A stretch of DNA of 64,000 nt from Alphaproteobacteria bacterium (GCA_045537965.1 JAZSQL010000054.1:15224-79223), one strand, 5' to 3'; positions 37,075 through 58,686 are shown, counted from the stretch's first letter. Notes: generated by a model not told the origin, from the letters alone. Numbers and translations: made by a program.

Positions 37075-37373
37075 TTAGTTTCCTTTCAAATTTTATTTTA
37101 ATAAAACGGTATTGCTACCTGACACCGTTAGTATGAAAGAAAACCAAAACAGAAGTCAACGCCTTATTTTTCAACGATTTTTGCAATGTATGTTTTTAAA
37201 TGTATTTAAATGGGTATTGATGGGTTTATCGGGGTAAAAAGTTTTTGATACATTTTGTAAAAAAGGCAATATTTTATAAAATTTAGTCACGAATCGTAAA
37301 AATTATGATGTTAAATAAACTTAAACTTATATAAGATATTAATTATATTAGGTTAGTTTTTAGGTAGAAAAAG

Positions 37374-41559: not shown

Positions 41560-42420
41560 TTGATATTTACAAGGATTTACATTATTATAACAAAAAATAT
41601 CATAGAGAGGATTGTTTTGCCTAATACAGTTGTAAAATTGAAATTAAAATTTACTGGAGCCGATGCAAGAAACCATCGATTAGATTTTTATGATGCAACC
41701 TACTCACTATATGGATTTGCTCGTGCATTACAAATAACAATGGATTTATTTGTAAATAAAAGAGTAATAAAAAAGGCAAACACAACTAAAAACTTTAAAA
41801 GTTATATGCTTACCTCTAAAGAAGGAAGTTTTGAGCAGGATATTCTTTATTTGTTAGCATCAGGAGTAGCTGTTAATGCTGTTTATGATTTTATTAAATA
41901 TGTATTTAAACAAGCTATTAGCTCCGAACGGGTTCGTTTGAATAGACAACAAAGTTTAATGCACACAGAATACGAGCCATATTTCGATAAAATAACAGAA
42001 GTTATTAAAAATCCATTACTTGATGCTCACAGAGTTATAAAAATGAATCCATCTTGTAAAATATCTTTGATTGCGGAAAAGGAAAATAGTTCCAATAGTA
42101 CTTTAGTAAATTTTAATTATGATACTTATTGTTATCTATCCCAAGAAGAAAATAACGATGATATAATAGTAGAAACAGGAAATATAACTAAATATAATGT
42201 ATTAACCCAAAATGGTAGAGTTTATTTGACTTCATATGGACGAGTAATTTCATTTTCTCTTTGTAAAAACATAAGCGATGATGCAAAAAATTTAATAACA
42301 TTATCTTTACATAATAGGAACAATGGTCTTCCAGATATTCTAAACATAAGTTATAAAAAAGTATTATCTTCTAATAATAAAATTGTAAAAATAATTATAG
42401 TTGATTGTTCAGAATTATAG
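41560..42420 (+). CDS. Hypothetical protein, third gene of the candidate module; start uncertain (TTG at 41560 or a downstream TTG/ATG)
   Basis: 286-aa ORF co-oriented with the two upstream genes. GAGAGGA RBS precedes an internal TTG at ~41617. Confidence 0.45.
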   Translation: MIFTRIYIIITKNIIERIVLPNTVVKLKLKFTGADARNHRLDFYDATYSLYGFARALQITMDLFVNKRVIKKANTTKNFKSYMLTSKEGSFEQDILYLLASGVAVNAVYDFIKYVFKQAISSERVRLNRQQSLMHTEYEPYFDKITEVIKNPLLDAHRVIKMNPSCKISLIAEKENSSNSTLVNFNYDTYCYLSQEENNDDIIVETGNITKYNVLTQNGRVYLTSYGRVISFSLCKNISDDAKNLITLSLHNRNNGLPDILNISYKKVLSSNNKIVKIIIVDCSEL

Positions 42421-42811: not shown

Positions 42812-43396
42812 TTAAACCCTCACATTCTCCACGGCATTAGCAAGCATTTGCTGGTTGTAATTGAAATAATGCTGTGTGGTTGAGATGTTTCTATGATTGG
42901 CGAGTTTTTGAACTAAACAGATATTAACTCCGGAATTTACCAGTTTTGATACAAACAAGTGTCTGCCCAAATGGCTTGCACCTTTAATGTTGAATTTGCG
43001 GTAAATCGAAGAAAACAAACGACTAATGCTTACTCTGTTATAAGGTTTATTGAGTTTTTGACTTGTGAACAAATATGTTTCCTGTGTCAGTTTCTCGCCC
43101 CATTTTCTTTGCAAATATTTCAAATATTCGCAAAACTCCTTCTTTAACTGGCTATTCATATAATATTCGCATTTGTTTTTGCCTTTGTTTTTATCGTAAT
43201 CAAGACAAATGACATCTTTGATTTTCAAATCATCGGTAAAAATATCTTTGATTTGCAGATAAGCAAAATTAATTGAGCGCATGCCATTTAGACTGCAAAG
43301 GAACATCATACGAATTTGTTCGGTATGCTTCATCGATTTGATGAAATTCAAAATATCCTTAATTTTCTTATCATCTACAAAAACATCATTTGTCAT
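42812..43396 (-). CDS. Tyrosine-type site-specific recombinase, catalytic domain only
   Basis: Conserved Arg (GMRSIN), HLGRHLFVSKL..G (box II His/Arg) and HRNISTTQHY (catalytic Tyr). 194 aa, lacking the N-terminal core-binding domain. Confidence 0.7.
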   Translation of the reverse strand: MTNDVFVDDKKIKDILNFIKSMKHTEQIRMMFLCSLNGMRSINFAYLQIKDIFTDDLKIKDVICLDYDKNKGKNKCEYYMNSQLKKEFCEYLKYLQRKWGEKLTQETYLFTSQKLNKPYNRVSISRLFSSIYRKFNIKGASHLGRHLFVSKLVNSGVNICLVQKLANHRNISTTQHYFNYNQQMLANAVENVRV

Positions 43397-43982: not shown

Positions 43983-44309
43983 CTAATACTCATCAGCATA
44001 CATTATAGTCATAACTCGGTTGGTAAGTCTTGGCTTGCAAGCATTAGGCGAAAGGAAAAGGAAATTGTTGTCATAATAATCAATCTTCCAGAAAATCTTT
44101 TTGCCCTTAAAAGTAAATGCCCCGAAATCCTTTTCGCCATATGGGTTATTATTTTCATTGAAATCGTTGAAATTGCGGACTTTATTGATAATGGTTGTAA
44201 TATCATCATGAGTGTTGCTTCTGATACCTTCGGTTAAAATCAAAGTACCTAGCGAGGGATTGGCTCTGAAAGCATCATTTAGTTTGGCGATTTCTGATAC
44301 ATTATTCAT
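43983..44309 (-). CDS. Small protein resembling the DUF3768 family (recalled, unverified)
   Basis: Motifs NDAFR, NNPYGEKDFGAFTF.GKKIFWKIDYYD and LTNRVMTIMYADEY match my recollection of DUF3768 proteins found on plasmids and ICEs. Confidence 0.4.
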   Translation of the reverse strand: MNNVSEIAKLNDAFRANPSLGTLILTEGIRSNTHDDITTIINKVRNFNDFNENNNPYGEKDFGAFTFKGKKIFWKIDYYDNNFLFLSPNACKPRLTNRVMTIMYADEY

Positions 44310-44829
44310 TGCAACTATCCTCTAAATATAAGTTGAACATCAAATCCACCAAGCCTTCTTTGTCGTTGGCATAGTCCCAAACATTTTTTCCTTTGTTGTT
44401 TTTGATATCAGGGTCAGCATCGTTATTGATAAAAAACTCAATCAATCCCAAACGCATCATGGCTTGCGGATGATTTACAACCTTTATAAAAGCTGTATTA
44501 CCGGCATTGTCTTGGGCATTGATATCACTTCCGGCTTGAAGCAAAAGGTTCAAACTAGCAGGATTGCTTCGTTTCTTGGCGGCAATCATAAAAGGAGTAT
44601 CGCCGGAAATGTTACGAGAATGAACATCGCCACCGTGAGATAAGAAAAGCTCAATGACCTCGGGTTCATAGAACTCACGGCAGGCGAACATAAAAGGAGT
44701 GTAACCGTTAGAATTGTAGGGTTTGTTTACATCTGCACCATTTTCAAGCAAAGTCTTGATAGTTGCGAAGTCTTCGCTATAAAGTGCTTTCATTAAATCA
44801 TTATCGTTACTAACCATTTGAATCTCCAT
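44302..44829 (-). CDS. Ankyrin-repeat protein
   Basis: Four to five ANK repeats (NGADVN...GYTPFMFACR, GSDINAQDNAGNTAFI, NNDADPDIKNNKGKNVWDYA). Confidence 0.85.
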   Translation of the reverse strand: MEIQMVSNDNDLMKALYSEDFATIKTLLENGADVNKPYNSNGYTPFMFACREFYEPEVIELFLSHGGDVHSRNISGDTPFMIAAKKRSNPASLNLLLQAGSDINAQDNAGNTAFIKVVNHPQAMMRLGLIEFFINNDADPDIKNNKGKNVWDYANDKEGLVDLMFNLYLEDSCNE

Positions 44830-45347: not shown

Positions 45348-46601
45348 CTAAAAGTCTAAACTTTCAGGTGATAATAAGAAATCTTTTAACCCTACAATTA
45401 AAATACCAGATTCATTGTAGTACGGTTTTCTGCTACCTCCAACGATAATGATTTTCTTAAATCCATCAGGAATATTAAGAAGTGACCTTTCTTCCTGTTT
45501 TTGTTTTTCTTCAGTAGGCATACTATATGCTGATTGTATGTAATATCTTTTGCTTCCCAAATTAACTACAAAATCAACTTCTAATTTCTTTTCTTGCTTT
45601 TTCCCTGCAGTATTTTTCTCTGTAACTGTAACTTCTCCAATATCAATTTGGTAACCTCTTATAGTTAATTCATTATATATAACATTTTCCATAAGATGAG
45701 TTTCTTCTTGCTGACGAAAATTAATTTCTGCGTTTCTTAATCCTACATCAGTAAAGTAATATTTTGCAGGTGTATTGATATATTTCTTTCCTTTTATATC
45801 ATAACGAAGCACTTTGTTTATTAAAAATGCATCTTCTAAGAAAGATAGGTAATTCTTTATTGTCGGTGCTGTTAAATCTAAATGTTTCTTGCTTTTGAAT
45901 GTATCTGCTAGTTTTTGAGGATTTGTTAAAGAACCGATATTAGATGCAACAACAGCAAGCAATTCTTCTAATTCTTCAGAGTTTTGTATTTTGTTTCTTG
46001 CTATAATATCCTTTAAGTAAGTTTCTTTATACAAATTCTGCAAATATTTTGCTTTTTCAATATCTGTATTGAATTTGAATAATGCAGGCATTCCTCCATA
46101 TACACTATACTCATTCCAAGCATCGTCCCAATCTGTGTTTTTATGAGCATAAAATTCGGCAAAACTCAATGGATGAATACGAATTTCATCTCCTCTACCT
46201 CTAAATTCTGTAACAATATCAGTTGATAAAAATTTAGAATTACTTCCGGTTACATAAACATCTAAGTTTTTAATTCGTAAAAATCCGTTCAAAACACTTT
46301 CAAAATCTTCCATCATTTGAACTTCATCAAGTAGTAGATAATACATGTCTTTGTCTTGTATTCTTTCTTTTACATAACTTGTGCATTCATCAGGATTGCG
46401 ATATTTTTCATCTTCTCTGGTATCTAATTGAATAGAGATAATATGGTCTTCTTTTACATCGTTTTCTAATAAGTGGTTATAGAATAACTCAAATAACATA
46501 TATGATTTGCCACAACGACGGATACCACTGATTATCTTAATAAAACCATTGTGTTTGTGGCTAATAAGTTGATTTAAGTAGGTATCTCTTTTGATTTCCA
46601 T
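45348..46601 (-). CDS. AAA-family ATPase with a DUF4143-type C-terminal domain (start re-placed at MEIKR)
   Basis: MEIKRDTYLN...GIRRCGKS (Walker A) ...LLLDEVQ (Walker B). GGAGG RBS 5 nt upstream of this ATG. The upstream part of the tracked ORF is a translated palindromic repeat. Confidence 0.8.
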   Translation of the reverse strand: MEIKRDTYLNQLISHKHNGFIKIISGIRRCGKSYMLFELFYNHLLENDVKEDHIISIQLDTREDEKYRNPDECTSYVKERIQDKDMYYLLLDEVQMMEDFESVLNGFLRIKNLDVYVTGSNSKFLSTDIVTEFRGRGDEIRIHPLSFAEFYAHKNTDWDDAWNEYSVYGGMPALFKFNTDIEKAKYLQNLYKETYLKDIIARNKIQNSEELEELLAVVASNIGSLTNPQKLADTFKSKKHLDLTAPTIKNYLSFLEDAFLINKVLRYDIKGKKYINTPAKYYFTDVGLRNAEINFRQQEETHLMENVIYNELTIRGYQIDIGEVTVTEKNTAGKKQEKKLEVDFVVNLGSKRYYIQSAYSMPTEEKQKQEERSLLNIPDGFKKIIIVGGSRKPYYNESGILIVGLKDFLLSPESLDF

Positions 46602-46612
46602 AATTGCCTCCA

Positions 46613-46718
46613 TTTTAGATTTTGCCGACAAGTCGGTATTTTCTAAAATAATATACATTAAATAGATAAAAGTCAAGAGTATTTTAGATTTTGCCGACAA
46701 GTCGGCATTTTCTAAAAT
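46613..46718. repeat. Two copies of a 37-bp palindromic element (46613-46649 and 46682-46718) in the promoter region of the AAA ATPase gene
   Basis: ttttagattttgccgacaagtcgg(t/c)attttctaaaat, with inner palindrome ccgacaagtcgg and outer arms tttaga/tctaaa. Copies are 69 bp apart. Confidence 0.55.
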
Positions 46719-46780
46719 GAACAAACCACCACCTTATATAAAAGTAGCGATTTTATAGGAGAATTTATTGTTTAGTGGGC

Positions 46781-47302
46781 TTATTCCTTATAAATCACTG
46801 CACCATTATCTAAAAGTAGGTTTGCTATATCTATTTCTATTCGTTCTAATGCGATAAGAAGTGCTGTTTCTCGTTGGTAATTGAGCCAATTTACATCACA
46901 TCCTTTATCAATCAACATCTGAATTACATCTAGTTTTAGGTCATCAGTCATATTTTCGTTCAAAATTACTGACATTATCGCATTATAGCCAAATATATCG
47001 GTTTGGTTGATTTCGCTTCCTTGTTCGAGCAGATATTCAATCGGCTCTATGGTAGAGCAAAAGTAGCAAGCAACCAAGAAAAGTGTAGCTCTTCGGCGGT
47101 TTATTGGTGTGTTAATTTGGAAATTTTCCATTTCTATCATTTTTTGTATCTCATCAACGCAATCAATGCAAAGCTCCGCTTCGCTTTCATAATTAACCAC
47201 AGGAAACACCGGTGCGTTCTTCACTCGCTCAGCAATCTGTTCCATTTTCTTTTGCATTTCGGGGAATTCACCTAGAAGCCATTTGTTGCAAAAAATCGTC
47301 AA
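46781..47302 (-). CDS. Ankyrin-repeat protein
   Basis: ANK repeats (GSEINQTDIFGYNAIM, GCDVNWLNYQRETALLIA, LLLDNGAV). Confidence 0.75.
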   Translation of the reverse strand: MTIFCNKWLLGEFPEMQKKMEQIAERVKNAPVFPVVNYESEAELCIDCVDEIQKMIEMENFQINTPINRRRATLFLVACYFCSTIEPIEYLLEQGSEINQTDIFGYNAIMSVILNENMTDDLKLDVIQMLIDKGCDVNWLNYQRETALLIALERIEIDIANLLLDNGAVIYKE

Positions 47303-47577
47303 CCAAAGTAATGGGCAATAAACTCGTCAGAGAGGGCTATTTGATAAAACCCTGTGATGATAAGGGCAGAAGACAATTATCGCTCTCTGAACGCCAATTT
47401 ATCCCCTAGATGGCATCAACATGAGTAACGTGGAGAAGACTTTGATTTTGCGTGAATTGGTCGAGGCGCAAAATGATGCAAACAACTACAAACAACAGTA
47501 TTTGCTTGAAAAAGCACGAGCTGATAGATTATCCGAAGAACTCACAAATCTTAAGTTTCAAATGATAGGTAATATTG

Positions 47578-47979
47578 CTATTTAATCTGTGTTTTGTAAA
47601 GAGAACCATAGATTGAGTTATCTTTTGCTAATAATTCTTCATGTGTTCCTATTTCTACAATCTCACCATAGTTTACAACAACAATCTTATCGGCATTCCT
47701 AACAGTAGATAGGCGGTGTGCAATAATAAACACCGTTCTATCTTTCATAAGATTATCAATGGCTTGTTGAACAACTGCCTCAGATTTATTATCAAGAGCT
47801 GATGTTGCCTCATCTAAAATAACAATAGGAGCATCTTTGATAAAAGCTCTGGCAATGGCTATTCTTTGTTTCTGACCACCTGAAAGCAAAACACCTCGCT
47901 CACCAATCTCTGTATCTAAACCTTTTTCAAGACTAGATATAAATTCTTCTAAACAAGCACATTTAATAGCTTTATGGTG
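47578..47979 (-). pseudogene. 3' fragment of an ABC exporter ATP-binding domain (signature to C-terminus only)
   Basis: Frame encodes ..[45 protein letters not shown]. No Walker A or TMD. The fragment begins exactly at the stop codon of the upstream gene. Confidence 0.7.
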
Positions 47980-48966
47980 CTATTTTATAATGGTATTTCG
48001 AAAAGAAAGTCCTAATAGTGATTTAAGATTATACAAAATTTTCTTTTTACTATGTCTTAGTCTAATCGACCAATAAAGGCGTTTTACTTTTTCCTTATCA
48101 TAAAGCGGTAATTTATAATTTTTATCGCAGTATTTTTTGTATAATTTTAACCATTCAAAATGAGAATACATTGCAAACATTTCATAATGTGTATGTATAT
48201 TATTATGCTTATATGAATTATACCCAATATCAATAGCATCTAACAAAACAGTATTATTTGCAAATATATGTTCTGATTTCTCTAAATTACCATGCTCTAT
48301 ATCAACACTATGTTCAAATTCTAATCGAATATGACGACGCAGAAATGCTACCCAAATATATTGCTCTGCAGAATACTGGCATAAAGCTGGAACCCAATTT
48401 TCATATTTCACAATCGGACGTTTATGTGTCTCAAAATAACGTGAAGTCTGGGGCTCAGGACATAAAGGAGAGTTAAAAACATCTATTAAGTCTTCTCTTA
48501 AACCAAAGAAGAACCAATCGGAAGGATGATATGGTTTAGCTTCTCTGTGTGGGTTGGGTGCAAATCGCGTAGACATCAAAATGCGTTCTTTAGTTATCTT
48601 ATATTCTGTACATCTTTGGGGAAATCTATCCCAGTAATTTAAGAAATTTATATTATCAAAATACATATCGGAACGAATTTTTAAGGCATATTTTCTAGTT
48701 GCCTTTTTCAAGCCGGCTAAAGTTGAAACTATTTGTCGATTGCATGCATTCAATATTTTAGGGTTATCCCACACGGGATATCCTCCAGGATCTTTGCTTT
48801 CTATAATAACATCAGCCAATTGATGTTGATAATTACTACCTTCCCAAGTAGATACAATAATCTCTGCATCTGGAAAAAACTGCCTGATATTTGTAACAGT
48901 ATTATCTGTCATGTAATTATAAATGGGACCTTGAATAATTACTGATATATCAAAAGATTCTATCAT
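47980..48966 (-). CDS. Hypothetical protein, last gene of the glycan-decoration operon (possibly a WavE-like LPS biosynthesis protein, unverified)
   Basis: 328-aa ORF whose start overlaps the epimerase stop. Trp/Tyr-rich with no clear motif. Confidence 0.4.
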   Translation of the reverse strand: MIESFDISVIIQGPIYNYMTDNTVTNIRQFFPDAEIIVSTWEGSNYQHQLADVIIESKDPGGYPVWDNPKILNACNRQIVSTLAGLKKATRKYALKIRSDMYFDNINFLNYWDRFPQRCTEYKITKERILMSTRFAPNPHREAKPYHPSDWFFFGLREDLIDVFNSPLCPEPQTSRYFETHKRPIVKYENWVPALCQYSAEQYIWVAFLRRHIRLEFEHSVDIEHGNLEKSEHIFANNTVLLDAIDIGYNSYKHNNIHTHYEMFAMYSHFEWLKLYKKYCDKNYKLPLYDKEKVKRLYWSIRLRHSKKKILYNLKSLLGLSFRNTIIK

Positions 48967-49970
48967 TTAATATATTCCTTCTGATAATTAATAATTTCTT
49001 TCAAGCCATCTAACAAATTTATTTTCGCCTCATAATTGAACTCATTTCTTACTTTTGAGCCATCACCAAGGCAATGTTTAAATACTTCTTGTTTTACTCT
49101 TTCTTTTCTCAAATTATATGTTGCATTAAACAATTCTTCATATTTGTCCCAAAATTTTAAAGGTTCGCCTTTATCATATTCAAAAGGTTTCTCTAATGCA
49201 GAATATATTGTTTTTGCTATTTCCATAGCTGAATAAGCTTTGCCTGTAGCGAGATTGAAAATATCAGCATTATATTTCTTATCTGATATTGCCATTCTGT
49301 GTAAATATTGCATCAAATCATAAACGTATATATAATCCCTTTTGCAATCTTCCGTATTATAAATTGTAGGCTTTCTTCCAGCTAATGCTTCACGAATTAA
49401 AAAGCTAGTAAAAGGCGGATATTTACGTTTAAAATCTTGATGCGGTCCAAAAACGTTAAAAAATCTACATATTACAATATCTATACCATAATTTTGAGCA
49501 AATGATTTGCAAACTTGTTCAGCACAATATTTTGTTGTTGCATAAACTAAATTAGGGTGGACATCATCTGTTTCTTTATGTACTTCATTTGCTGGATTGT
49601 TTTCATAAACAGCTGATGTCGATGCAAAAATAAAACGTTTAACATTACTTTTTCTGATAGCGTTCAAAACATTAGCGACACCTGTGGTGTTCACGTCGAA
49701 AGCTTTGTCTGGGTGTGATTCACATTCTGGAAGAGCTGAAATACCTGCAAAATGATACACTATATCTATATTTTCTAAATACTTCTCAAAATTTTGTTCC
49801 CTTACATCTGCTTGTATAAAATTTTTAGATAATATTTCATTATCTTCAAAATTATCTCTGTAACCATATTCCAGATTATCTAGAATTTTGACATTATGCC
49901 CTTCTTTTAGTAAAAACTTACCTAGTTCAGAACCAATAAATCCTGCACCACCTGTAATCAAAATATTCAT
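48963..49970 (-). CDS. NAD-dependent sugar epimerase/dehydratase (SDR extended family)
   Basis: Rossmann motif ITGGAGFIGSEL and the catalytic YxxxK (YATTKYCAEQ). Confidence 0.85.
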   Translation of the reverse strand: MNILITGGAGFIGSELGKFLLKEGHNVKILDNLEYGYRDNFEDNEILSKNFIQADVREQNFEKYLENIDIVYHFAGISALPECESHPDKAFDVNTTGVANVLNAIRKSNVKRFIFASTSAVYENNPANEVHKETDDVHPNLVYATTKYCAEQVCKSFAQNYGIDIVICRFFNVFGPHQDFKRKYPPFTSFLIREALAGRKPTIYNTEDCKRDYIYVYDLMQYLHRMAISDKKYNADIFNLATGKAYSAMEIAKTIYSALEKPFEYDKGEPLKFWDKYEELFNATYNLRKERVKQEVFKHCLGDGSKVRNEFNYEAKINLLDGLKEIINYQKEYIK

Positions 49971-49983
49971 TTATTTCTCCTAT

Positions 49984-51042
49984 CTATTGTAAATATTCTT
50001 TAATATTATTGTTTCTCGGCAATGTAATGGCTATTCCTGAAGGATATGGATTTGTTGGAGCAAAATCATTTACAACAACTCTTGCTGCATGATTCATTCC
50101 CATAAGCATTGCATATGGCTTTATGCCGTTTTCATTTAAGATTTTTTCTAAATCTGTTCTAAATTCTTCTGGACGAGATGTTGTTATTACAATTTGAGCG
50201 CCATCATCTTGTAATTTTCTAATTGTTTCCATATTTTCAGGTAAAGTTTCAGTGTTGTTGTACCAATTACGTTTTCCATACTTTCCGCAATTTTTCATCA
50301 AAACACCATCTACATCAACAAAGTATGTTCTATGTTTTTTTTGTACTTCTTTCCACTCTGATAAAGTACCCCAATCATCATATGAAAGAGCTAATATTGA
50401 TGAAAATACGTAATTATTTGAAGCCAACATATACGAAATCACATGACTTATATACATTTCACCTGATATTTTCTTTGTAAGCATTTCATCATATGCATTT
50501 ATAAAATCTAAAGCATTTTCGAAACAATAAACGCCCAAGCATATAATATTCGAAACCACCTGTTTTTCTATAATGTCATGGATAATTCCCTGTTCATTTA
50601 CTATGAGAAAACTTTTTCCCGGTATGTTTGTAATATCAGGATGTTCATGCAAATTGTAACCAACAATTGAATTTTTAATTTGTTTGTTAAAGTTAACCTC
50701 TACGCGATTATCCGAATCTTTAATAACAAATGCACCCTCTACATTCATTTTCTTTAGTGTCAAGTAAACCGTCTCACTAGCTGACGATGTAAAATCATCT
50801 AGCATACAAATTTCTATTTTGGGATTGTTCTCAAAAACTTGCTCCATAATAAGCTTAGCTTCATATTTTTCATCATGAGGCTTAACGATAGTGATGATTA
50901 TTCTATCAAACACATCTACGTTAATTTTCTCCATTGATTTTTCAATCATTAACTTGCCATCTGGACGAGTTAACATGTATTTGGGTTTCATATTAGGAAA
51001 ACGACTGGATTTTCCGGCGCATGGAATAATTAAAGTATTCAT
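49984..51042 (-). CDS. Bifunctional sugar/phospho-substrate nucleotidyltransferase (MobA/LicC-like) with a HAD-like phosphatase domain
   Basis: N-terminal IIPCAGKSSRFPNMKPKYML (NTP-transferase G-loop). C-terminal FVDVDGVLM (HAD motif I DxDG) and ITTSR (motif II). Confidence 0.65.
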   Translation of the reverse strand: MNTLIIPCAGKSSRFPNMKPKYMLTRPDGKLMIEKSMEKINVDVFDRIIITIVKPHDEKYEAKLIMEQVFENNPKIEICMLDDFTSSASETVYLTLKKMNVEGAFVIKDSDNRVEVNFNKQIKNSIVGYNLHEHPDITNIPGKSFLIVNEQGIIHDIIEKQVVSNIICLGVYCFENALDFINAYDEMLTKKISGEMYISHVISYMLASNNYVFSSILALSYDDWGTLSEWKEVQKKHRTYFVDVDGVLMKNCGKYGKRNWYNNTETLPENMETIRKLQDDGAQIVITTSRPEEFRTDLEKILNENGIKPYAMLMGMNHAARVVVNDFAPTNPYPSGIAITLPRNNNIKEYLQ

Positions 51043-51923
51043 TATGCCTCCATTTCATTTATTGAGTTTAAAACGCTTTCAAGAGCATTATTTAAGAAAA
51101 GTATTGTTGTTTGGTCTTTAGCGTATGGATAAATTCGCAAGACATTTAAAAGTAAAATATGATATATTGTAATGACATTTTGCTTGCCATTTTCCATGGC
51201 ATATAAATTATCTAGCAAAGCTTGTTTAGCTGTTGCTAGGCGTAAATTAAGATTATAATTTCGTTCTTGATGTCTATATGACCAGCCTAAATCAATATCT
51301 TGTAAAAGTTTTGCTACATCAATCATCCAAGAGTTATAAAATGAATCTAATAAATCAATTACGTAAATGCCTGATGACGAAAGTATAATATTCTCTAATG
51401 TTAAATCACCACAACAAGCTGAAAGAGGAACATTTTGGAAGTTAAATTCTTTTAACTTATTTAGAGATTTCAGAATTAATTCATTGTTTATATCGCATGT
51501 TTTGTATAAAGATAAAATTTTTTCCTTAAAAATACTTTCACTTTTATCCGTAACTACACTTTGTTTTATGGGTAACGACTTAAATAATAGCCCTATCAAA
51601 TCAACTATTTCTTTTATTTTAATTTGATTCATATATTCTGACATACATATGCCATTAATGAATTCCATATCAAAATAAAAAAGATTATTATTATCATAAC
51701 CATAACGTAAAACTTTAGGTGTTTTTACGGCATCAAGCTTAAACCACTTTTGTTTAGCACATTGTTTCTTTAATCTGTTGTTATATGACACATTTCCAGC
51801 ATCTTTACGTAAAAAAAAGACATCCTTTTCTTTATAAAGATTAAGTTGGCAACCTGAATGCCCTTTTAATTCCTTAATATGTTCAAAATTTGTTAACAAT
51901 AAATATTTTTTATCAACAATCAT
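51042..51923 (-). CDS. Choline/ethanolamine-kinase-like phosphotransferase (APH/LicA family)
   Basis: Brenner/APH-like motifs CCGDLTLENIIL and VIDLLDSFYNSWMIDVAKLL. 293 aa. Confidence 0.55.
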   Translation of the reverse strand: MIVDKKYLLLTNFEHIKELKGHSGCQLNLYKEKDVFFLRKDAGNVSYNNRLKKQCAKQKWFKLDAVKTPKVLRYGYDNNNLFYFDMEFINGICMSEYMNQIKIKEIVDLIGLLFKSLPIKQSVVTDKSESIFKEKILSLYKTCDINNELILKSLNKLKEFNFQNVPLSACCGDLTLENIILSSSGIYVIDLLDSFYNSWMIDVAKLLQDIDLGWSYRHQERNYNLNLRLATAKQALLDNLYAMENGKQNVITIYHILLLNVLRIYPYAKDQTTILFLNNALESVLNSINEMEA

Positions 51924-54091
51924 TTTATAATTTTCCTTAGATTTTGTAATGATTGCTCATAAATACTATCAGATAAAATTTTAAGATTTTTCTTCTTGTC
52001 TTGATACTCTTCTTCTGACATTTCAATAGCTTTAATCATTAACGATGCCAAATCTTCCTCATAAATCAAAGAATTTTTATCATTAAAACCATAAAAATCA
52101 GCAAATTTTTGCTGTATTAAGCACGGAATATTAAATCCGTATATCAGTTGAGCTGAGCCTGTAACACCGGTTGTTATATATCGATTATGTTGAGAATTAT
52201 TACAATCTAATAATGGCAAAAAGAAATCCGCTGTTTCCACTTGCTCATACATTTTTGGAAAACTCAAAAATCCTTTAAGGTTAAAATAATTTCGAAACTT
52301 ATTTGGAATATCATTTAATCTTCCTCTGCCAATAACATTTATTTTACAATGATATCCGTGTTGACATATAATATCTACAGCATCAATCAAAAGACGATGA
52401 TTTTTTTGTTCAGGATTTATTCCGCCAACTACAATAAAAGTGGTAGCCTTATTTTTTTTATGTTTTTTATAAGTTCCGAAATAATGCGGATTTACATATA
52501 TCCCCTTACTAAATTTACCAAGAGTAACAATTTGTTTATTTTTATCAAATTCTTGCAAATTAAAAAGAGGGATATCTGTAATATCATGTTCAACAATTAA
52601 AGTTTTTGATTGTCCTTTTGGCCAAAAACCTATTTTATCTTTTAATGAAATTATCTTTGAGTAGTCATAAGTTAATAAAAATCTGGAACTAGTTACAAAT
52701 ATAAATTTATATTTTTTAATTTTAGCTTTGTTAAAAAAATATTTCAAAAATATTGGACAGAAGGAAAACAATTTAATTTGTTTAGTTTCTATTCGTTTAA
52801 ATGGGTGCTCTTTAACATTCTTTTCAGACATTAAAACATCAACATTGTACCCTAAATCAAGCAAATATTTGGCATATCCGACACCTACTTCAGCATGACA
52901 ATCATTGGGTTCTACTAATAGAACACTATTACCACGCACTGATGTAAAACAGAATCTTGCTAAATTTAATAACGATTTTAATGATAATAAACTTAAGGTA
53001 TTTTGAACCTTTTTTCTGGTGTCTTTTTTCCAAATACAACAGGTTAAAATTTTTATAATTCTCTTTTTTAGCTTAATTTTGTAATATATTTTAGAAATAG
53101 GTATGTTTATGATAGAAATATTTCCCGTTTCCTTATTCTTAGAAAATAAAGGAAAGCAAAATAATTTAATCTTCTTGCCATAGCCATTTTTTTCTTTCCT
53201 CCATTTCAAAATATTGAGAAAATATAATAGTCGTAATCTCCTATAAAATGGTGTTATTTTTGCATATTTCCAGAAATACACACTATAAGGGACATTTGGA
53301 GTATTCCAAGGTTTTCGAGAGGATGCGTAGTGAAATAGAAAAGGAAATTTTTCTGCGTTGAGCATTTCTTGATTTTGGGATACGTCTTCTGTGCGATGTG
53401 TACAAAAACTGTATTTATAATCCAAGATTTTATAGTTATTAGCAAAGACAATATTTAATACATCTAAATCTGGATATTGAAGATCTTTTTCGTACTCATA
53501 TGTGGCGTCGATAAGCTTTTGGGTGATATTATTTTTACGCCAATAATCGCAATTAATAAGCAGGTTTCCTGATTGAAAATATTTATGTTGCGGTGTAATA
53601 CCAAATTTCTTTTTACGCATTATATGGTTATCAATTCCCTCTAGAGGCATGCCAATTTCTTCTATAGGTGCTGCTAAGCCAAAATTTTCTACGTTTATAT
53701 CATAAAAATCTTTAATATCCGCATTAAAAATAACATCAACATCAGAATAAATAGCCTTTGATATTTCTGGTTTTAGAAGAGGTATTAAATAACGATTATA
53801 CATTGCAAGTGAATAATGATTACTTGTTTTAGCATTGGGGAAAAATAACTTGACATCAACATTAAGATATTCGACATCAAAATTTTTCCATCGTTTTTTC
53901 AAACTAGCAATTTTTGATTTTGCTGATTGGGAAACACCACTATCCAAAATATAAAATGAAACAAATGACTTTGTATGATCCATTATAGAGGCTATTGTAG
54001 TGGCAATAAATGGGGCATATTTTTCATCTGATGCTAAAAAAACAGGTATTTTTTTTTGAATCATTTTTTGCTCCAATTTTCTAAAATCCAA
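51920..54091 (-). CDS. Two-domain glycosyltransferase: N-terminal GT8 (LPS glycosyltransferase-like) and a C-terminal GT-B-like domain
   Basis: N-terminal IPVFLASDEKYAPF..YLNVD..YSDVDVIFNADI (GT8 DxD). 723 aa. Confidence 0.65.
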   Translation of the reverse strand: MDFRKLEQKMIQKKIPVFLASDEKYAPFIATTIASIMDHTKSFVSFYILDSGVSQSAKSKIASLKKRWKNFDVEYLNVDVKLFFPNAKTSNHYSLAMYNRYLIPLLKPEISKAIYSDVDVIFNADIKDFYDINVENFGLAAPIEEIGMPLEGIDNHIMRKKKFGITPQHKYFQSGNLLINCDYWRKNNITQKLIDATYEYEKDLQYPDLDVLNIVFANNYKILDYKYSFCTHRTEDVSQNQEMLNAEKFPFLFHYASSRKPWNTPNVPYSVYFWKYAKITPFYRRLRLLYFLNILKWRKEKNGYGKKIKLFCFPLFSKNKETGNISIINIPISKIYYKIKLKKRIIKILTCCIWKKDTRKKVQNTLSLLSLKSLLNLARFCFTSVRGNSVLLVEPNDCHAEVGVGYAKYLLDLGYNVDVLMSEKNVKEHPFKRIETKQIKLFSFCPIFLKYFFNKAKIKKYKFIFVTSSRFLLTYDYSKIISLKDKIGFWPKGQSKTLIVEHDITDIPLFNLQEFDKNKQIVTLGKFSKGIYVNPHYFGTYKKHKKNKATTFIVVGGINPEQKNHRLLIDAVDIICQHGYHCKINVIGRGRLNDIPNKFRNYFNLKGFLSFPKMYEQVETADFFLPLLDCNNSQHNRYITTGVTGSAQLIYGFNIPCLIQQKFADFYGFNDKNSLIYEEDLASLMIKAIEMSEEEYQDKKKNLKILSDSIYEQSLQNLRKIIK

Positions 54092-54507
54092 GAAGATGAA
54101 TTGGGCTTAACTCTTCCTGAAACAGAAGTTCCCACATTATACTTAATTTCAATATTTAATGATTGACACGTTGGAATTTCGGGGATGTTATCTGCAGTCC
54201 GATCTCCACCTTTAGCAAAAGTAAGATTTGCCGTAGGATATTTTTGTCGTGCTCTTTGGAGCCCATCGCAAGCAGTGTTGTCGGAATCATCAAAAACAAT
54301 TACATCTACAACACCTTTAATATTTTCCATAATCATTCTACGTGTTTCAAAATTCATAAAAGGCTTTCCTTTTTTACGAGTTAGCCATGCATCAGAATTA
54401 AGAAGAACAATAACACCATCGGAATTTTCACGACTTTCGATAATGTTTTCTATATGTCCTTCATGTAGTGGATCAAATCCTCCGCTAACGATGTATAAAA
54501 TAGTCAT
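54061..54507 (-). CDS. Cytidylyl/adenylyltransferase-like protein (HIGH-motif nucleotidyltransferase, RfaE domain II / TagD-like)
   Basis: IVSGGFDPLHEGH (HxGH motif) at the N-terminus. 148 aa. Confidence 0.7.
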   Translation of the reverse strand: MTILYIVSGGFDPLHEGHIENIIESRENSDGVIVLLNSDAWLTRKKGKPFMNFETRRMIMENIKGVVDVIVFDDSDNTACDGLQRARQKYPTANLTFAKGGDRTADNIPEIPTCQSLNIEIKYNVGTSVSGRVKPNSSSWILENWSKK

Positions 54508-54511
54508 AACT

Positions 54512-55480
54512 TTAATCCTCTGATAAACGACAGTTGTTTTTTTGTGTTTTGGTTAACCAATAATATATGATTCTGTTTTTAATGGATAAATTACGTGGTC
54601 TAAAAATACCTTGTTTTTCCAGTTCTTTTAAAACAGGAAGATATTGTGTTAGCCATTTATTATAATTCTTCTTATCTTTTTTCTTAGTGAACTTAACTAC
54701 ATAACCAAATAAGCGTTTTGCGATATAATGTTCCAAGTCTTTTTTCGTTTTTTTATCCAATGTATTATTATCAAACATACTAGAAAGTTTAATTGCAATT
54801 AAAAGCTCGTCATCCAATCTCTTTTTGGTTAATGGTTTGGTCATAGCACTATTTTCTCTAGTGCGATAAAAATACATATCCGAATGAATATAAACTGCAT
54901 ATTTTGCTCTATGGAGTACCTGATAAAGGAATATCAAATCTTCTCCGACAGACAAATCTTCTGAAAATGTTAAATTTTCAAGCAAATTCTTACGATACAA
55001 TTTATTCCATATAGACGATACTATTTTAGGCTTTTGATGTTGTACATAATGATCAAAAGGTTTGTCGTAAATTTTCTCTGACGTCTCAAAAAAGTTCCAT
55101 TCTGCTTTATTTTCACCTTTCTCAAAATCGCACCATGCAAATCCAGCTTCTGATCTTTTTTGTAAAGCCTCTAACATTTTTTCTAAGAAAACAGGGCATA
55201 TTTCATCATCGCTATCAATAAAGGAAATAAAATCTCCATTTGCATGTTGCAATCCATTGTTTCTAGCTGCAGAAACGCCTTGATTTTCTTGATATATTAT
55301 TTTAAAACGACTATCTTTTCGTGCATATTCATCTAAAATAGCACCACAATTATCAGGACTTCCATCATTAACACAAATTGCTTCCCATTCACAAAATGTT
55401 TGTGCAAGAACAGAATCTAAGCATCTTTTTAAGTATTTCTCTACTTTGTAGCAGGGAATTATAATGGAAACCTTAGGCAT
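54512..55480 (-). CDS. Family 2 glycosyltransferase
   Basis: VSIIIPCYKVEKYL..NDGSPD..DSDD motifs. Confidence 0.85.
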   Translation of the reverse strand: MPKVSIIIPCYKVEKYLKRCLDSVLAQTFCEWEAICVNDGSPDNCGAILDEYARKDSRFKIIYQENQGVSAARNNGLQHANGDFISFIDSDDEICPVFLEKMLEALQKRSEAGFAWCDFEKGENKAEWNFFETSEKIYDKPFDHYVQHQKPKIVSSIWNKLYRKNLLENLTFSEDLSVGEDLIFLYQVLHRAKYAVYIHSDMYFYRTRENSAMTKPLTKKRLDDELLIAIKLSSMFDNNTLDKKTKKDLEHYIAKRLFGYVVKFTKKKDKKNYNKWLTQYLPVLKELEKQGIFRPRNLSIKNRIIYYWLTKTQKNNCRLSED

Positions 55481-56477
55481 TACAGCTCCTTTTGTTTTCT
55501 AATTTTCTTAAGCGATACATAACTGTGTTTGGAGCAACGCCATACACTTGACCTATTTCTTTATAGGTCATACCTTTTCTGCGCATTTTGATAATTTCTT
55601 TATCTAAGCCAAATAGCTTGGTTTTATATTCAGCCATCTTATTGGCTCGGGTTAGCTCCATTTTGCGAATTTTTGCTCCAATCCAAACAGGATGAGCATT
55701 AACTTTTTCGCCGATTTCTTGTAATGAACGGCCTTGTTCGTACATTTTCTTTATCAAGCGTTCATCTTTGGCTAATTTACTATTGATTTTGATATCAGAT
55801 AAAGGACGAGATAAATTAAGTTCTTTTATTTTGGTTGTAACCGTCATAAATGAACAGTTTAGTTTTTTTGCTATCTCTTCTACTGACAAACCTTTGTTAA
55901 ATAAACGTCTAATGGTATTCTCTTTACCATCAAGTTTTTTTACTACAGGAATCTTAATTTCATAAAGAGCTAAAAGATTAAGAACTGTTTGTGGATTTAC
56001 ATTATATCTTCTTGCTACTTCCGCTTTAGAAATTCCAGAATATAATAACTCCAAAATCTCATCTAAATAGATTTCAAGACAATTATATTTGTGTTTATTT
56101 TCTGGTTTAATTCCTGCTTTTTTGTTCTCTGTTCTAACTTTTAATGCTTTGGCTTGTTGTTCTATAACCTCTTGTGGTGGGTTATAAATACCAAGACGTT
56201 TCCTTCTTGTGAGTAATGTTGACGAATGTATGTTTAACTTTTCCGCTATTTCTCTGTAACTTAAACCTTGTTCTTCAAGTGATAATATATCTTCCTTGTC
56301 AATATTCTTTCTTCTTAAACGAGGTTCTCTTTTTAAGCCAAGCTCATTAATTTTATTGCATAAGGTTGTTTTACCAATAGAAAGCTTCTCAGCTATTTGC
56401 TCCAAAGTTAAATCTGAGTTAAACAGCTCTATAATGTGTGCGTTTGTAAATGATGCAGAGGTTGAAGCGTTAATCAC
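55473..56477 (-). CDS. Protein composed of six tandem resolvase-type HTH repeats
   Basis: Six ~50-aa repeats, each ending in an HTH such as IAEKLSIGKTTLCNKINELGL, IAEKLNIHSSTLLTRRKRLGI, VARRYNVNPQTVLNLL, IAKKLNCSFMTVTTKIKELNL, IGEKVNAHPVWIGAKIRKMEL, IGQVYGVAPNTVMYRLRKLE. Confidence 0.6.
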   Translation of the reverse strand: MINASTSASFTNAHIIELFNSDLTLEQIAEKLSIGKTTLCNKINELGLKREPRLRRKNIDKEDILSLEEQGLSYREIAEKLNIHSSTLLTRRKRLGIYNPPQEVIEQQAKALKVRTENKKAGIKPENKHKYNCLEIYLDEILELLYSGISKAEVARRYNVNPQTVLNLLALYEIKIPVVKKLDGKENTIRRLFNKGLSVEEIAKKLNCSFMTVTTKIKELNLSRPLSDIKINSKLAKDERLIKKMYEQGRSLQEIGEKVNAHPVWIGAKIRKMELTRANKMAEYKTKLFGLDKEIIKMRRKGMTYKEIGQVYGVAPNTVMYRLRKLENKRSCNA

Positions 56478-57114
56478 TAGCTATCCCTCCACTAATCATT
56501 TTCAATTCAGGGTATTGTTGCAGGTATTTAAATATCAGCGAGATGCTACAACCAATAGTTTTAGCTATTTGTTTTTTTGTTTTTCCTTCGTGATACAACT
56601 GAATTATTTTATATTTGTTGCGTTCTAATATGGTAGATTTACATTTTTGCCCTTTGACAAAACCTAATATAGCGCCTTGATCTTTTTTGTCTTTTAAGGC
56701 TTTTTTAGTTATGGTAGAAACCATAGAATTACGGATATCTATTGATAGTTTAATCCCATTAAGAAGTTGAGTTGTTTCGTTAGAAGAATCGAATTTGAGG
56801 TTTTCTTTGACACTTATTAATTCAAATCCGTTTGAAACTAAAAATTCTATATTTTCTACAATTGTTACTAATTTGCTGCCTAAACAGGCTATATTAGCCA
56901 CAATGAGCGTATTTTCTTTGGAATTTATATTATCCTTAATGTTTTTGATATCCGGGTCATTGATGAATATATCAATATTATATGCATTATTACGAGCATA
57001 TTGATTTACAATGTCTCGTTGTTCATCTGCGCTTATATTCCTTTGGTTGTTATCCAAATATCCAATAATCACTATGCGCCCCTTATAACAATAAATGCTT
57101 TCGCCATATATCAA
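56470..57114 (-). CDS. Resolvase/invertase homolog lacking the catalytic serine and DRLGR motif (likely non-catalytic); TTG start
   Basis: Starts MIYGES.. but reads GYLDNNQRNISADEQ where YxRVSTxxQ is expected, and IACLGS where SRLGR is expected. C-terminal HTH (KKQIAKTIGCSISLIFKYL) is retained. Confidence 0.55.
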   Translation of the reverse strand: MIYGESIYCYKGRIVIIGYLDNNQRNISADEQRDIVNQYARNNAYNIDIFINDPDIKNIKDNINSKENTLIVANIACLGSKLVTIVENIEFLVSNGFELISVKENLKFDSSNETTQLLNGIKLSIDIRNSMVSTITKKALKDKKDQGAILGFVKGQKCKSTILERNKYKIIQLYHEGKTKKQIAKTIGCSISLIFKYLQQYPELKMISGGIASD

Positions 57115-57304
57115 CGTTTTTGGCGAGGGGTTTTCTTTGTTTTTTCAAAAGGCTACGATTTTTTAAGAAAAGCTTGGATTTGTTGAAATTTTCCTTGCTT
57201 TATTAAATTTATTGGATTAAGGATATTTGTTATGTAATCTAGACGTTGGTTTATGAAGAGTGTCTATTTTATATAGGTTTTCCCTTAGAAATATTGGTTA
57301 TTCT

Positions 57305-57330
57305 TATAAATAGTTATGTAACTATTTGTA
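57305..57330. promoter_or_regulatory. hix/res-like 26-bp site: 12-bp inverted half-sites around a 2-bp centre (TATAAATAGTTA tg TAACTATTTGTA)
   Basis: Located 10 bp upstream of the invertase ATG, in the 226-bp region between divergent resolvase-family genes. It also overlaps a TATAAAT -10-like box. Confidence 0.35.
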
Positions 57331-57340
57331 AGGAACTGAT

Positions 57341-57964
57341 ATGATTTATGGATATTGTAGAATAAGTACGAATCACCAACAGGTTTGTAATCAACGACAC
57401 GAAATTCAAATATTTGCCGATAAAAATAATATAAAAATTGATAAGTGGATTGAAGAAACAATCTCTTCTAAAGAAGCATTAACCAATAGAAAACTGGGAA
57501 AAATATTAAAAAAACTCAAAAAAGGCGATATTTTAATTGCATCTGAACTTTCTCGTTTGGGGCGAAATTTGCTTGAGGTTATGGGAATTTTACAAAATTG
57601 CCTCGAAAAAGACTGTCAAATCTGGACTTTGAAAGAAAATTATAGGCTTGGAGCGGATATTCAATCAAAAGTTTTGGCTTTTGCATTTAGTTTAGCAAGC
57701 GAGATAGAACGCCAACTTATTTCAGAACGCACTAAAAATTCACTTCAAAGACTAAAAGATGAAGGAAAACATTTGGGCAGACCATATGGTTTTAGCTACA
57801 AAAAACTACAAAAGAAGCACAATAAGATAAAAGAGCTATTGGATAAGAATGTATCAAAATCAGAAATTGCAAGGCTTATGGGGTGTACTTGGTCTACTTT
57901 GAATAGATATATAAATGAGGCAATAATAGGTAATCAATTACAAGATGTAATTTCAGAATCGTGA
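57341..57964 (+). CDS. Serine recombinase of the resolvase/DNA invertase family
   Basis: MIYGYCRISTNHQ (Ser nucleophile), ELSRLGRN, and a C-terminal HTH (SKSEIARLMGCTWSTLNRYI). 207 aa. Confidence 0.85.
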   Translation: MIYGYCRISTNHQQVCNQRHEIQIFADKNNIKIDKWIEETISSKEALTNRKLGKILKKLKKGDILIASELSRLGRNLLEVMGILQNCLEKDCQIWTLKENYRLGADIQSKVLAFAFSLASEIERQLISERTKNSLQRLKDEGKHLGRPYGFSYKKLQKKHNKIKELLDKNVSKSEIARLMGCTWSTLNRYINEAIIGNQLQDVISES

Positions 57965-58027
57965 TGAAGCTGTTATTTCATCACAGTTTTGGCTTTTTCT
58001 CATTGTACTTTTAGTCCTGATTTTATT

Positions 58028-58433
58028 TTATGCAGCAAATAAACTTCTTATTAATTGGACTTGTTCTTTCATTTCCAATATTTCTGAACGGTGATTAACA
58101 AGTACACAATAAAGTTGGGCTGATTTTTGTTCTACATATTCCTCTTTCTGCCAGCCAGCTTGGATAGGGCTAGCGGAAATTTTCGCTAGCCCTTGATTTT
58201 TAAGGCTTTCAGCGAGTTCGTGCGGCAATGCTTTGTTTCCTTTCGGAGTGTTAACATTTACAAATTCATTAAACGGAAATCTTAATTTGTAACTGATTTT
58301 ACCTTCAGTCAAAATAATGTTCTCAAATACAAATTTTAATAAAAGTCTTTTTAATTCAAAATTTGATGATTTTTCAAAAAAGTATCCTGCTTGTGTAGCT
58401 ATATCTAATAATCCTAAAATTGTTTCGTCAAAG
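58028..58433 (-). pseudogene. Remnant 3' portion of a second serine-integrase gene
   Basis: Encodes ..ISYKLRFPFNEFVNVNTPKGNKALPHELAESLKNQGLAKISASPIQAG, matching the last ~100 residues of the 34161-35858 integrase. No N-terminal catalytic domain. Confidence 0.7.
58152..58433. repeat. Right copy of the long direct repeat (tRNA-Gln 3'-end-like cagccagcttgg, terminator hairpin and integrase 3' end)
   Basis: Co-linear with 34240-34603 but missing the in-frame ~81-bp segment. Confidence 0.8.
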
Positions 58434-58686
58434 CTGGAATATACAAATTACTGTTTAATGCACTAACTACTTTATTTACAAGCTCATTTGTATCATATTC
58501 TACAGTATAAAATGATTTTATATTAATTCTATTCCATAATTCTTGAAATTCTTTTTTATCAATATTGTTCTTGTTTAATTTTATATCTATAGACTTTGCC
58601 CTAGCATTTTCAAACATAAATTCTTCTTCATCGGACATTTTGAATTCTCTTAAAAAAATTGTGTTTTTCTTTATACATAGGTTCAT
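58414..58686 (-). CDS. Hypothetical ORF adjoining the integrase remnant (possibly a gene fragment)
   Basis: 90-aa ORF ending where the repeat similarity stops. Confidence 0.25.
   Translation of the reverse strand: MNLCIKKNTIFLREFKMSDEEEFMFENARAKSIDIKLNKNNIDKKEFQELWNRINIKSFYTVEYDTNELVNKVVSALNSNLYIPALTKQF

Follow-up and report, generated by a model that had tools for sequence, protein, structure and literature searches.

A probable Mpi-type promoter-inversion switch upstream of a glycan-modifying operon headed by a dead invertase paralog in uncultured Alphaproteobacteria

Does the small serine recombinase beside a surface-glycan operon in an uncultured alphaproteobacterium switch that operon on and off, and through which piece of DNA would it do so? 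The locus lies in a 64,000-nt stretch from an Alphaproteobacteria bacterium (GCA_045537965.1, JAZSQL010000054.1:15224-79223; this whole stretch is hereafter called the window), at the right end of what looks like a genomic island, where nine minus-strand genes are transcribed divergently from an invertase gene. An earlier note, made from the sequence alone, had proposed invertase-controlled phase variation of the operon, with a hix/res-like palindrome in the shared promoter region. Here, genes were mapped by open reading frame (ORF) calling and identified by Pfam and NCBIfam scans, and the locus was compared with related contigs (cited below by L numbers); most of the informative ones came from ENA and Logan look-ups. 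Phase variation of the operon by an invertase is borne out, in that a promoter-proximal segment is cleanly inverted between homologous or near-identical loci, but the site differs from the one named in the note. We are confident that promoter inversion of the Mpi type, switching the glycan operon, is the best explanation of the locus as a whole. The parts of the switch, together with the first gene of the operon (dRes), are as follows:

57961-57984, plus strand: terminator-like hairpin where the invertase gene ends; the conserved head module loses homology just past it (~58003)
57341-57964, plus strand: small serine recombinase of 207 aa, the presumed invertase (Pfam Resolvase E 3.4e-29; NCBIfam NF009949)
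57303-57332, plus strand: 14-2-14 palindrome with arms at 57303-57316 and 57319-57332, 13/14 complementary
57243-57254: inverted repeat, invertase-proximal arm (plus strand ACGTTGGTTTAT, reverse complement ATAAACCAACGT)
57195-57236, plus strand: putative promoter block in the core, the most conserved block in the type-A core alignment
57118-57242: invertible core of 125 bp, from in-silico inversion and contig comparison
57106-57117: inverted repeat, operon-proximal arm (plus strand ATATATCAACGT)
56470-57072, minus strand: dRes, first operon gene, 200 aa, with a weak Resolvase match and a helix-turn-helix (HTH) domain

The start of dRes is most likely the GTG at 57072, because homologous clusters are mostly 199-200 aa long; the divergent promoter region described earlier therefore exists but measures 268 bp rather than 226 bp. 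Inside it lies an invertible element of 149 bp. In blastn comparisons with L005, L006, L007 and L010, window positions 57106-57255 matched the opposite strand (95%) and the sequence on either side matched the same strand (91-96%), with a junction overlap of about 12 nt. Once 57118-57242 was flipped in silico, the whole region of 290 bp ran colinear with L005 (about four mismatches), and the breakpoints mapped by this alignment are the same in L021-L027 and L032-L044. The 12-bp repeats that bound the core are imperfect, reading ATAAACCAACGT (57243-57254) and ACGTTGATATAT (57106-57117) on the operon-sense strand. The operon-proximal one overlaps the TTG taken as the dRes start by the ORF finder and ends 33 nt upstream of the GTG, and this is the only repeat pair of its type in the window. 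Thus, the second recombination site without which the earlier note held that its proposal would fall does exist, in the form of these inverted repeats. The Mpi repeat consensus, ARACGTWCGT, resembles the ACGAACGA and ACCAACGT cores found here.

The core is found in both orientations in natural populations. In the compared contigs, dRes is 95-99% and the invertase 98-100% identical to the window (the invertase 100% except in L040-L044). The core faces the invertase in the window, L025/33, L026, L027, L032, L035, L039, L042 and L044, and faces the operon in L021/34, L023, L024, L040 and L043. It is 100% identical and in the same orientation in L025-27, and 99% identical and in the opposite orientation in L021, L023 and L024, the flanking genes being 95-99% identical in both sets. 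A second core sequence variant also occurs in both states (L009, L028, L041 and L037 versus L038), and contigs encoding the identical protein P0059 differ in core orientation (L001/L002 versus L003/L004). In a distant type, represented by contigs from Candidatus Scatocola and the human gut, flipping leaves 2 mismatches in 213 bp between L020 and L030/31. Moreover, scaffold L022/36 is chimeric, with both "promoter ends" joined across an N-gap, and eight short contigs start or stop exactly at the repeats, which is what assemblers yield when both orientations share a sample. The operon-side junction had 0 matches when JGI metagenome contigs were scanned for its exact pattern, a protein-based scan of such contigs found only 4 loci, and a look-up of the 100%-identical dRes P0054 gave no record.

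Could these differences be fixed evolutionary inversions or assembly artefacts, with the operon constitutively on or off in each strain? It is true that the evidence all lies between contigs and samples. Nevertheless, the same precise breakpoints at short inverted repeats occur in at least four sequence families, both states are present among loci with 95-100% identical flanks, an intact Mpi-family invertase is adjacent, and both the contig breaks at the repeats and the chimeric scaffold speak against fixed states. We therefore regard such an origin as very improbable and the invertible switch itself as very probably real; the chimeric scaffold and the contig breaks are indirect hints that it may also operate within a clone.

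The presumed catalyst of the inversion is the serine recombinase at 57341-57964, which is intact and divergent from the operon as first described: its catalytic residues R7 and S9 and its MIYGYCRIST and SRLGR motifs are all present. It matches NF009949 (master DNA invertase Mpi family) over its full length (residues 1-196 to positions 1-198 of the 203-position profile; 272.5 bits against a cutoff of 272, E 2e-81), and relatives with 84-90% identity in alphaproteobacterial metagenome-assembled genomes (MAGs) are publicly annotated as "master DNA invertase Mpi family". An intact homolog stands directly upstream of the switch at most loci. In the lineage of the window it is divergent and the repeats are of the AAACC[A/C]ACGT type; in a second lineage (51-58% identity) it is co-directional and the repeats are of the TAACGAACGAT or TTAACGGTCGTT type. 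With regard to a "master" (global) action, the window has one repeat pair and most loci have an invertase of their own, none being adjacent at L011 and L015 and only a remnant being left at L005-7. A Hin-like arrangement, in which the invertase gene would lie within the flipped segment, was rejected: the gene never flips in near-identical loci, its flank position is fixed, and the co-directional loci form a separate lineage with its own repeat type. An 11-nt repeat pair around the invertase gene (57287-57297 and 58075-58085) was linked to no rearrangement. In L005 (9495-9731), and also in L006, L007 and L010, the invertase is cut to residues 117-195 and the segment faces the operon in every case, which looks like a locked-ON locus.

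In which state is the window? Since a generic sigma-70 scan of the segment called no promoter, the promoter was placed by conservation. Type-A cores have a consensus block at one end of the segment, TTTTCCTTGC[A/T]T ... TG-n-TAT[G/A]T[A/G], 6-7 nt short of the repeat. In the window this block reads TTGCTT (57195-57200), N17, TAAGGA, and then TG-n-TATGTA (57228-57236), 6 nt short of the repeat. L017 has a promoter-like TTGCAA-N17-TATAAT, and the equivalent end of type-B cores, pointing at the operon, carries TTGAAA-N17-TATAGT (L019) or TTGACT-N18-TATAAG (L013). At all loci with a truncated invertase, the promoter-like end faces the operon, as would be expected if those loci are locked ON. The putative promoter block of the window faces the invertase gene, and so its glycan operon would be OFF, a state that we favor with some reserve.

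The palindrome at 57303-57332, to which a hix/res-like role had been assigned, is real, yet it lies outside the inverted segment and has no partner. As RNA it would form a 15-bp hairpin whose outer stem covers the Shine-Dalgarno sequence (AAGGA) and AUG of the invertase (-25.5 kcal/mol, z -4.1). It is conserved in L005, L009, L014, L016 and L028, and L017 is palindromic there with a different sequence. A crossover at this palindrome, either Tn3-res-like or inverting with a second copy in the island, would suit its conservation and its form, with two half-sites around a 2-bp center as in hix. However, its position is the same in both states, and the search for further half-site copies that the earlier note had suggested found 5 in the window against 5.7 expected, i.e. 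chance level. Pfam scans of the island ORFs revealed no transposase, no three-subsite res array was found, and the repeats at the breakpoints are inverted rather than direct, so that the proposed parallel with Tn3-type res regulation fails as well. Given also the stable hairpin over the translation start, a crossover function is highly unlikely. The palindrome probably controls invertase expression, either at translation (as an RNA hairpin occluding the Shine-Dalgarno sequence and AUG) or in the manner of an operator; transcripts started at the invertible promoter in the OFF state would run through it in the invertase leader.

Downstream of the switch, nine consecutive minus-strand ORFs run from 57114 (more likely 57072) down to 47980 and form one tightly packed operon of glycan-modifying enzymes, as had been claimed. 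Their junctions overlap or nearly abut (56470/56477, 55473/55480, 54507/54512, 54061/54091, 51920/51923, 51042, 49970/49984 and 48963/48966). The genes that follow dRes are:

55473-56477, minus strand: second gene, 6xHTH protein of 334 aa with about six tandem HTH units (HTH_23, HTH_38 and HTH_7 matches)
54512-55480, minus strand: GT2 glycosyltransferase (PF00535, E 1.9e-38)
54061-54507, minus strand: HIGH-motif nucleotidyltransferase, cytidylyl/adenylyl-transferase-like (CTP_transf_like PF01467, E 3.1e-10)
51920-54091, minus strand: GT8 glycosyltransferase (PF01501, E 6.7e-41) with a long C-terminal extension, weakly GT1-like (PF13692, E 7e-4)
51042-51923, minus strand: putative small-molecule/sugar kinase with an APH-like catalytic loop (weak matches: NCBIfam APH(3') E 5e-4, Pfam APH E 0.019)
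49984-51042, minus strand: fusion of a nucleotidyltransferase-like N-terminal domain and a HAD phosphatase (weak IspD and HAD matches; Cof-type HAD in NCBIfam)
48963-49970, minus strand: SDR-family NAD-dependent sugar epimerase/dehydratase (PF01370, E 2.6e-54)
47980-48966, minus strand: last gene, WavE-family lipopolysaccharide (LPS)-synthesis protein (PF07507, E 1.9e-54)

Most of the gene identities given in the earlier note are backed by these family scans; the kinase has weak matches only, and the last gene, which had been left as an unknown, belongs to the WavE family. NCBIfam matches under the cutoffs were also obtained for the product of 54061-54507 (RfaE domain II and TagD-like) and for that of 51920-54091 (LPS 3-alpha-galactosyltransferase-like). 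The kinase-like protein, for which a PDB sequence search gave no match, is 92-93% identical to the products of genes in L012 and L013, and the fusion protein encoded after it is 94-97% identical in the same two contigs. Because no flippase, polymerase or initiating transferase is encoded among the operon genes, the operon product probably decorates a pre-existing glycan; phase-variable decoration of lipooligosaccharide/LPS or of another pre-existing surface glycan is the probable outcome. The operon is directly followed (47578-47889) by the C-terminal 103 aa of an ABC-transporter ATPase (MsbA-like end), with 99% protein identity in L015, a SIG59 contig. This fragment is probably the remnant of a gene and the marker of a shared recombination boundary.

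What, then, is the first gene of the switched operon? The earlier note had called it a degenerate resolvase, and its sequence and predicted fold agree with this. At the positions of invertase R7, S9 and the SRLGR arginines (gamma-delta R8, S10, R68 and R71), dRes has D, N, C and S/N/K, and a nearby Ser in "RNIS" is not conserved. Its best NCBIfam match is the Mpi family, over the full length (66.6 bits, under the cutoff), and its Pfam Resolvase match has an E value of 9.5e-6. In the AlphaFold2 model (pLDDT 71.4), a long helix and an HTH accompany the resolvase beta-alpha-beta core, and Foldseek places Sin, gamma-delta/Hin and Tn3 resolvases, all full-length, at the top of its matches (E 2.6e-7 to 5e-6). 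Judged by these comparisons, dRes is a conserved, catalytically dead Mpi-type invertase paralog. A duplicated invertase gene decaying without function would likewise have lost its catalytic residues, and dRes is indeed truncated in L032 and L042. On the other hand, dRes homologs form 134 clusters of 43-100% identity with an intact ORF of about 200 aa, the alignment has 25 invariant columns and many more near-invariant ones, and helix E and the C-terminal HTH are retained. In addition, the motif loss is common to 46 or more clusters at 50% identity (when 1.84 billion representatives were searched with a profile, none of the top 46 matches had the catalytic motifs, and 109 of the top 150 were without them), and dRes is always the first gene past the switch. 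We thus give little credence to a functionless relic. At the two exceptional loci (L032:2111-2501 and L042:441-831), only about 40 codons of dRes are left, ahead of a GT2/ATPgrasp_TupA gene; the switch there is intact and the invertase 98-100% identical.

The second gene product, the 6xHTH protein, has 53 homologs, and its residues 180-229 are 36% identical to the invertase HTH (50 aa, E ~1e-4). The statement that both leading genes derive from resolvases therefore stands for dRes, the 6xHTH protein being only weakly tied to the resolvase HTH. Its gene is present in L012, L013, L019 (twice), L023-27, L033, L035 and L041, and absent from L001, L005, L009, L011 and L014-16. Control of the operon by these two genes, as originally suggested, was not borne out, both being themselves under the switch. 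P0068 (265 aa), a member of the dRes family, has its C-terminal HTH unit duplicated and may be an intermediate toward the six-HTH protein.

We propose the following mechanism. The invertase would bind both repeats and invert the core, which would carry the only strong promoter. In the ON state, this promoter would read out over the repeat and drive dRes, the 6xHTH gene and the seven genes for enzymes; in the state that is OFF for the glycan, it would fire toward the invertase gene. dRes, having kept a dimerization helix and a DNA-binding domain and lost DNA cutting, would be made only in the ON state. More speculatively, it might influence switching in return, either by sitting on recombination sites or by poisoning tetramers of the invertase, or its targets might be other loci, with the result that a single glycan locus prevails, as a functional counterpart of UpxY/UpxZ in Bacteroides. 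That dRes is a state-dependent "decoy subunit", changing flipping rates through invertase dimers or tetramers or through site occupancy, is put forward only tentatively.

The switch could also operate as described with dRes and the 6xHTH protein being ordinary regulators of transcription that leave recombination unaffected and work, like UpxY/UpxZ, as activators of their own locus or as repressors across loci. HTH domains are present in both proteins, the HTH of dRes travels with the cargo and not with the repeats, and their place in the operon is the same as that of UpxY/UpxZ in Bacteroides (PMC11685472). On the contrary, no target sites were identified, and conservation of dRes spans the recombinase-like domain and helix E, a pattern not readily expected of a plain HTH regulator. 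We consider this a possible but rather doubtful account. The HTH subtype of dRes was also compared with the repeat sequences. The window and L005 share repeats and differ in the dRes HTH, and the window and L001 share the dRes HTH and differ in repeats; this lack of co-variation weakens the simplest idea that dRes binds the repeats.

Several observations weigh against Mpi-type promoter inversion and a part for dRes in it. The evidence for switching lies between contigs and samples, together with one chimeric scaffold and contig breaks. The Mpi score of the invertase is exactly at the cutoff, and the putative promoter was located by conservation, with a negative sigma-70 scan and weak -10 elements in the window variant. 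The link between the enzymes and their substrate is based on adjacency and family membership. As for dRes, the failure of its HTH subtype to track the repeats argues against its simply recognizing them, and its truncation in L032 and L042 makes it dispensable for keeping the locus.

The module made up of invertase, invertible segment, dead paralog and variable glycan genes recurs in uncultured gut and rumen Alphaproteobacteria. The key proteins have homologs in records titled Alphaproteobacteria MAGs, from gut and rumen samples, one of them being Candidatus Scatocola faecigallinarum, and several MAGs carry two or three such loci. At every locus examined, dRes comes first past the switch, with glycan genes of differing kinds behind it:

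L001: RgpF, LicD and a nucleotidyltransferase
L005: GT2, GT4, RgpF and TupA
L009: DegT
L011: TOD1/TupA
L016 and L045: RmlA/RmlB-like
L015 and L018: RgpF
L031: Glf and DUF4422
L047-49: RmlA, epimerase and DegT

DNA homology of the head module extends from ~58003 to ~55204, i.e. about 90 codons into the GT2 gene, and the cargo differs beyond this point. A DNA cassette containing the kinase and nucleotidyltransferase/HAD genes (49986-51890) is common to L012 and L013 (89-92% identity), and closely related strains have the same invertase-operon head in quite different neighborhoods. In L015:3264-10600 (SUUZ01000008.1), the invertible segment (9812-9973) lies between two divergent glycan operons, one starting with GT2-GT2-GT8 and the other with dRes, and there is no adjacent invertase. 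The GT2-GT2-GT8 operon ends at the same ABC-transporter fragment that follows the window operon (95% DNA identity; compare window 47490-47972), and one promoter may toggle between the two alternative glycan operons here. Operons of the rml/DegT type in three different genomic contexts (L047-L049:5560-6000) are headed by P0333, a divergent dRes family, with a different and longer inverted repeat (~26 nt, spacer ~153), one orientation in all three and no adjacent invertase. The gene for an AAA_14/DUF4143 ATPase (window 45348-46724) recurs beside switch modules in L005, L021, L032, L047 and L048, the contexts being otherwise different.

The island that carries the operon and invertase at its right end is delimited by the following features:

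34161-35858, minus strand: large serine recombinase at the left island end, with Resolvase and Recombinase domains, abutting tRNA-Gln
34172-34245: tRNA-Gln (tRNA call)
58152-58434: direct repeat, right copy, at the right island end, pairing with 34240-34603

The direct repeat starts at the last 6 nt of tRNA-Gln, and its right copy is a decayed 3' piece of a similar recombinase gene (60% aa identity to residues 420-562 of the large serine recombinase). Across most of the bracketed region (34240-58152), the GC content is below that of the flanks. This segment of ~23.9 kb looks like an island inserted in tandem at tRNA-Gln, and the earlier description of the operon as island-borne is reasonable. 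The ORF of the large serine recombinase runs antisense across the whole tRNA-Gln (34161-34245), its last ~28 codons being tRNA antisense; the attachment site may lie within this gene, and excision would then alter the C-terminus of the protein. Two near-identical 38-nt palindromic units (ATTTTAGATTTTGCCGACAAGTCGG.ATTTTCTAAAAT), 69 nt apart at 46612-46649 and 46681-46718, lie within the 5' part of the AAA_14/DUF4143 ORF, and a weaker third copy is at 37245-37282. The island also holds a 194-aa tyrosine-integrase-like ORF, DUF3768, two ankyrin-repeat proteins and a DUF7946/DUF7947 protein (42812-43396, 43983-44309, 44302-44829, 46781-47302 and 41560-42420), a mixed cargo typical of a composite mobile region. 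Domain scans found ankyrin, Lcl and MIF domains among the window proteins.

How does this switch compare with known systems? In Bacteroides fragilis, Mpi flips the promoters, flanked by inverted repeats, of the PSA-PSH capsule loci, and UpxY/UpxZ are the products of the two leading genes in the capsule operons (PMC4747536, PMC12632263, PMC11685472). The present locus shares with it an NF009949 invertase, a promoter segment that is bounded by short inverted repeats and lies immediately upstream of a glycan operon, several loci per genome with differing biosynthesis genes, regulatory-looking locus-specific first genes and a gut host. It differs in its alphaproteobacterial host, in a segment of only 125 bp, and in an invertase that is usually beside each switch, with none at some loci, instead of a single global master. 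Furthermore, the leading gene is a dead invertase copy (sometimes followed by the 6xHTH gene) rather than a NusG paralog, and the window operon is without export and polymerization genes. UpxY is an antiterminator of the NusG/KOW type, and UpxZ is a small protein that inhibits it. Pfam and NCBIfam scans assigned neither dRes nor the 6xHTH protein to NusG/KOW families, so the likeness to UpxY/UpxZ is one of operon position only. Like Hin, Gin and Cin, the system has a small serine invertase, short imperfect inverted repeats and an invertible segment, bearing a promoter or a gene, with two expression states. Unlike these systems (hix/gix sites, Fis enhancer), its recombinase gene is outside the segment, no enhancer was identified, and the target is a glycan operon and not flagellin or tail fibers.

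A further likeness is to accessory-site resolvases: among the best structural matches of the dRes model are 2r0q, in which Sin is bound at its regulatory site, and 5cy1, with Tn3 resolvase on site III. The architectural use of a resolvase-fold protein is a concept shared with Sin site II and with Tn3/gamma-delta res sites II and III; there, however, one active protein plays both roles, whereas here it would be a permanently inactive subunit from a separate gene, with no res-like site array. The cps1 capsule inverton of Akkermansia muciniphila (repeat motif CGGATT..AATCCG; PMC13343947) is likewise an element flanked by inverted repeats that controls a phase-variable capsule/glycan locus in a gut bacterium outside Bacteroidales, but the text of that paper is without "recombinase" or "invertase" and describes no adjacent invertase or dead paralog. 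Full-text literature searches returned inverton surveys and the Akkermansia capsule inverton, and nothing on this clade or on dead-invertase paralogs.

Mpi-driven phase-variable capsules are textbook knowledge in gut Bacteroides; the present locus has the same family and design in a little-known, uncultured lineage of gut and rumen Alphaproteobacteria, which points to convergent gut pressure, or gene flow, toward many switchable surface glycans. For inverton-finding tools, a defined repeat and segment architecture becomes available for this clade, and annotation pipelines have reason to drop "hypothetical protein" for dRes-type genes. The unexpected part is a widespread, conserved family of dead invertases heading each switched operon, which is a testable candidate for feedback between switch output and the recombination machinery. 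If dRes does act as a decoy, its own locus could be latched ON or competing loci frozen OFF, and expression of one locus at a time would then be achieved by control of recombination and not, as in Bacteroides, of transcription elongation. In that case, the same logic would gain a second layer in the 6xHTH protein, whose DNA-binding domains are invertase-like.

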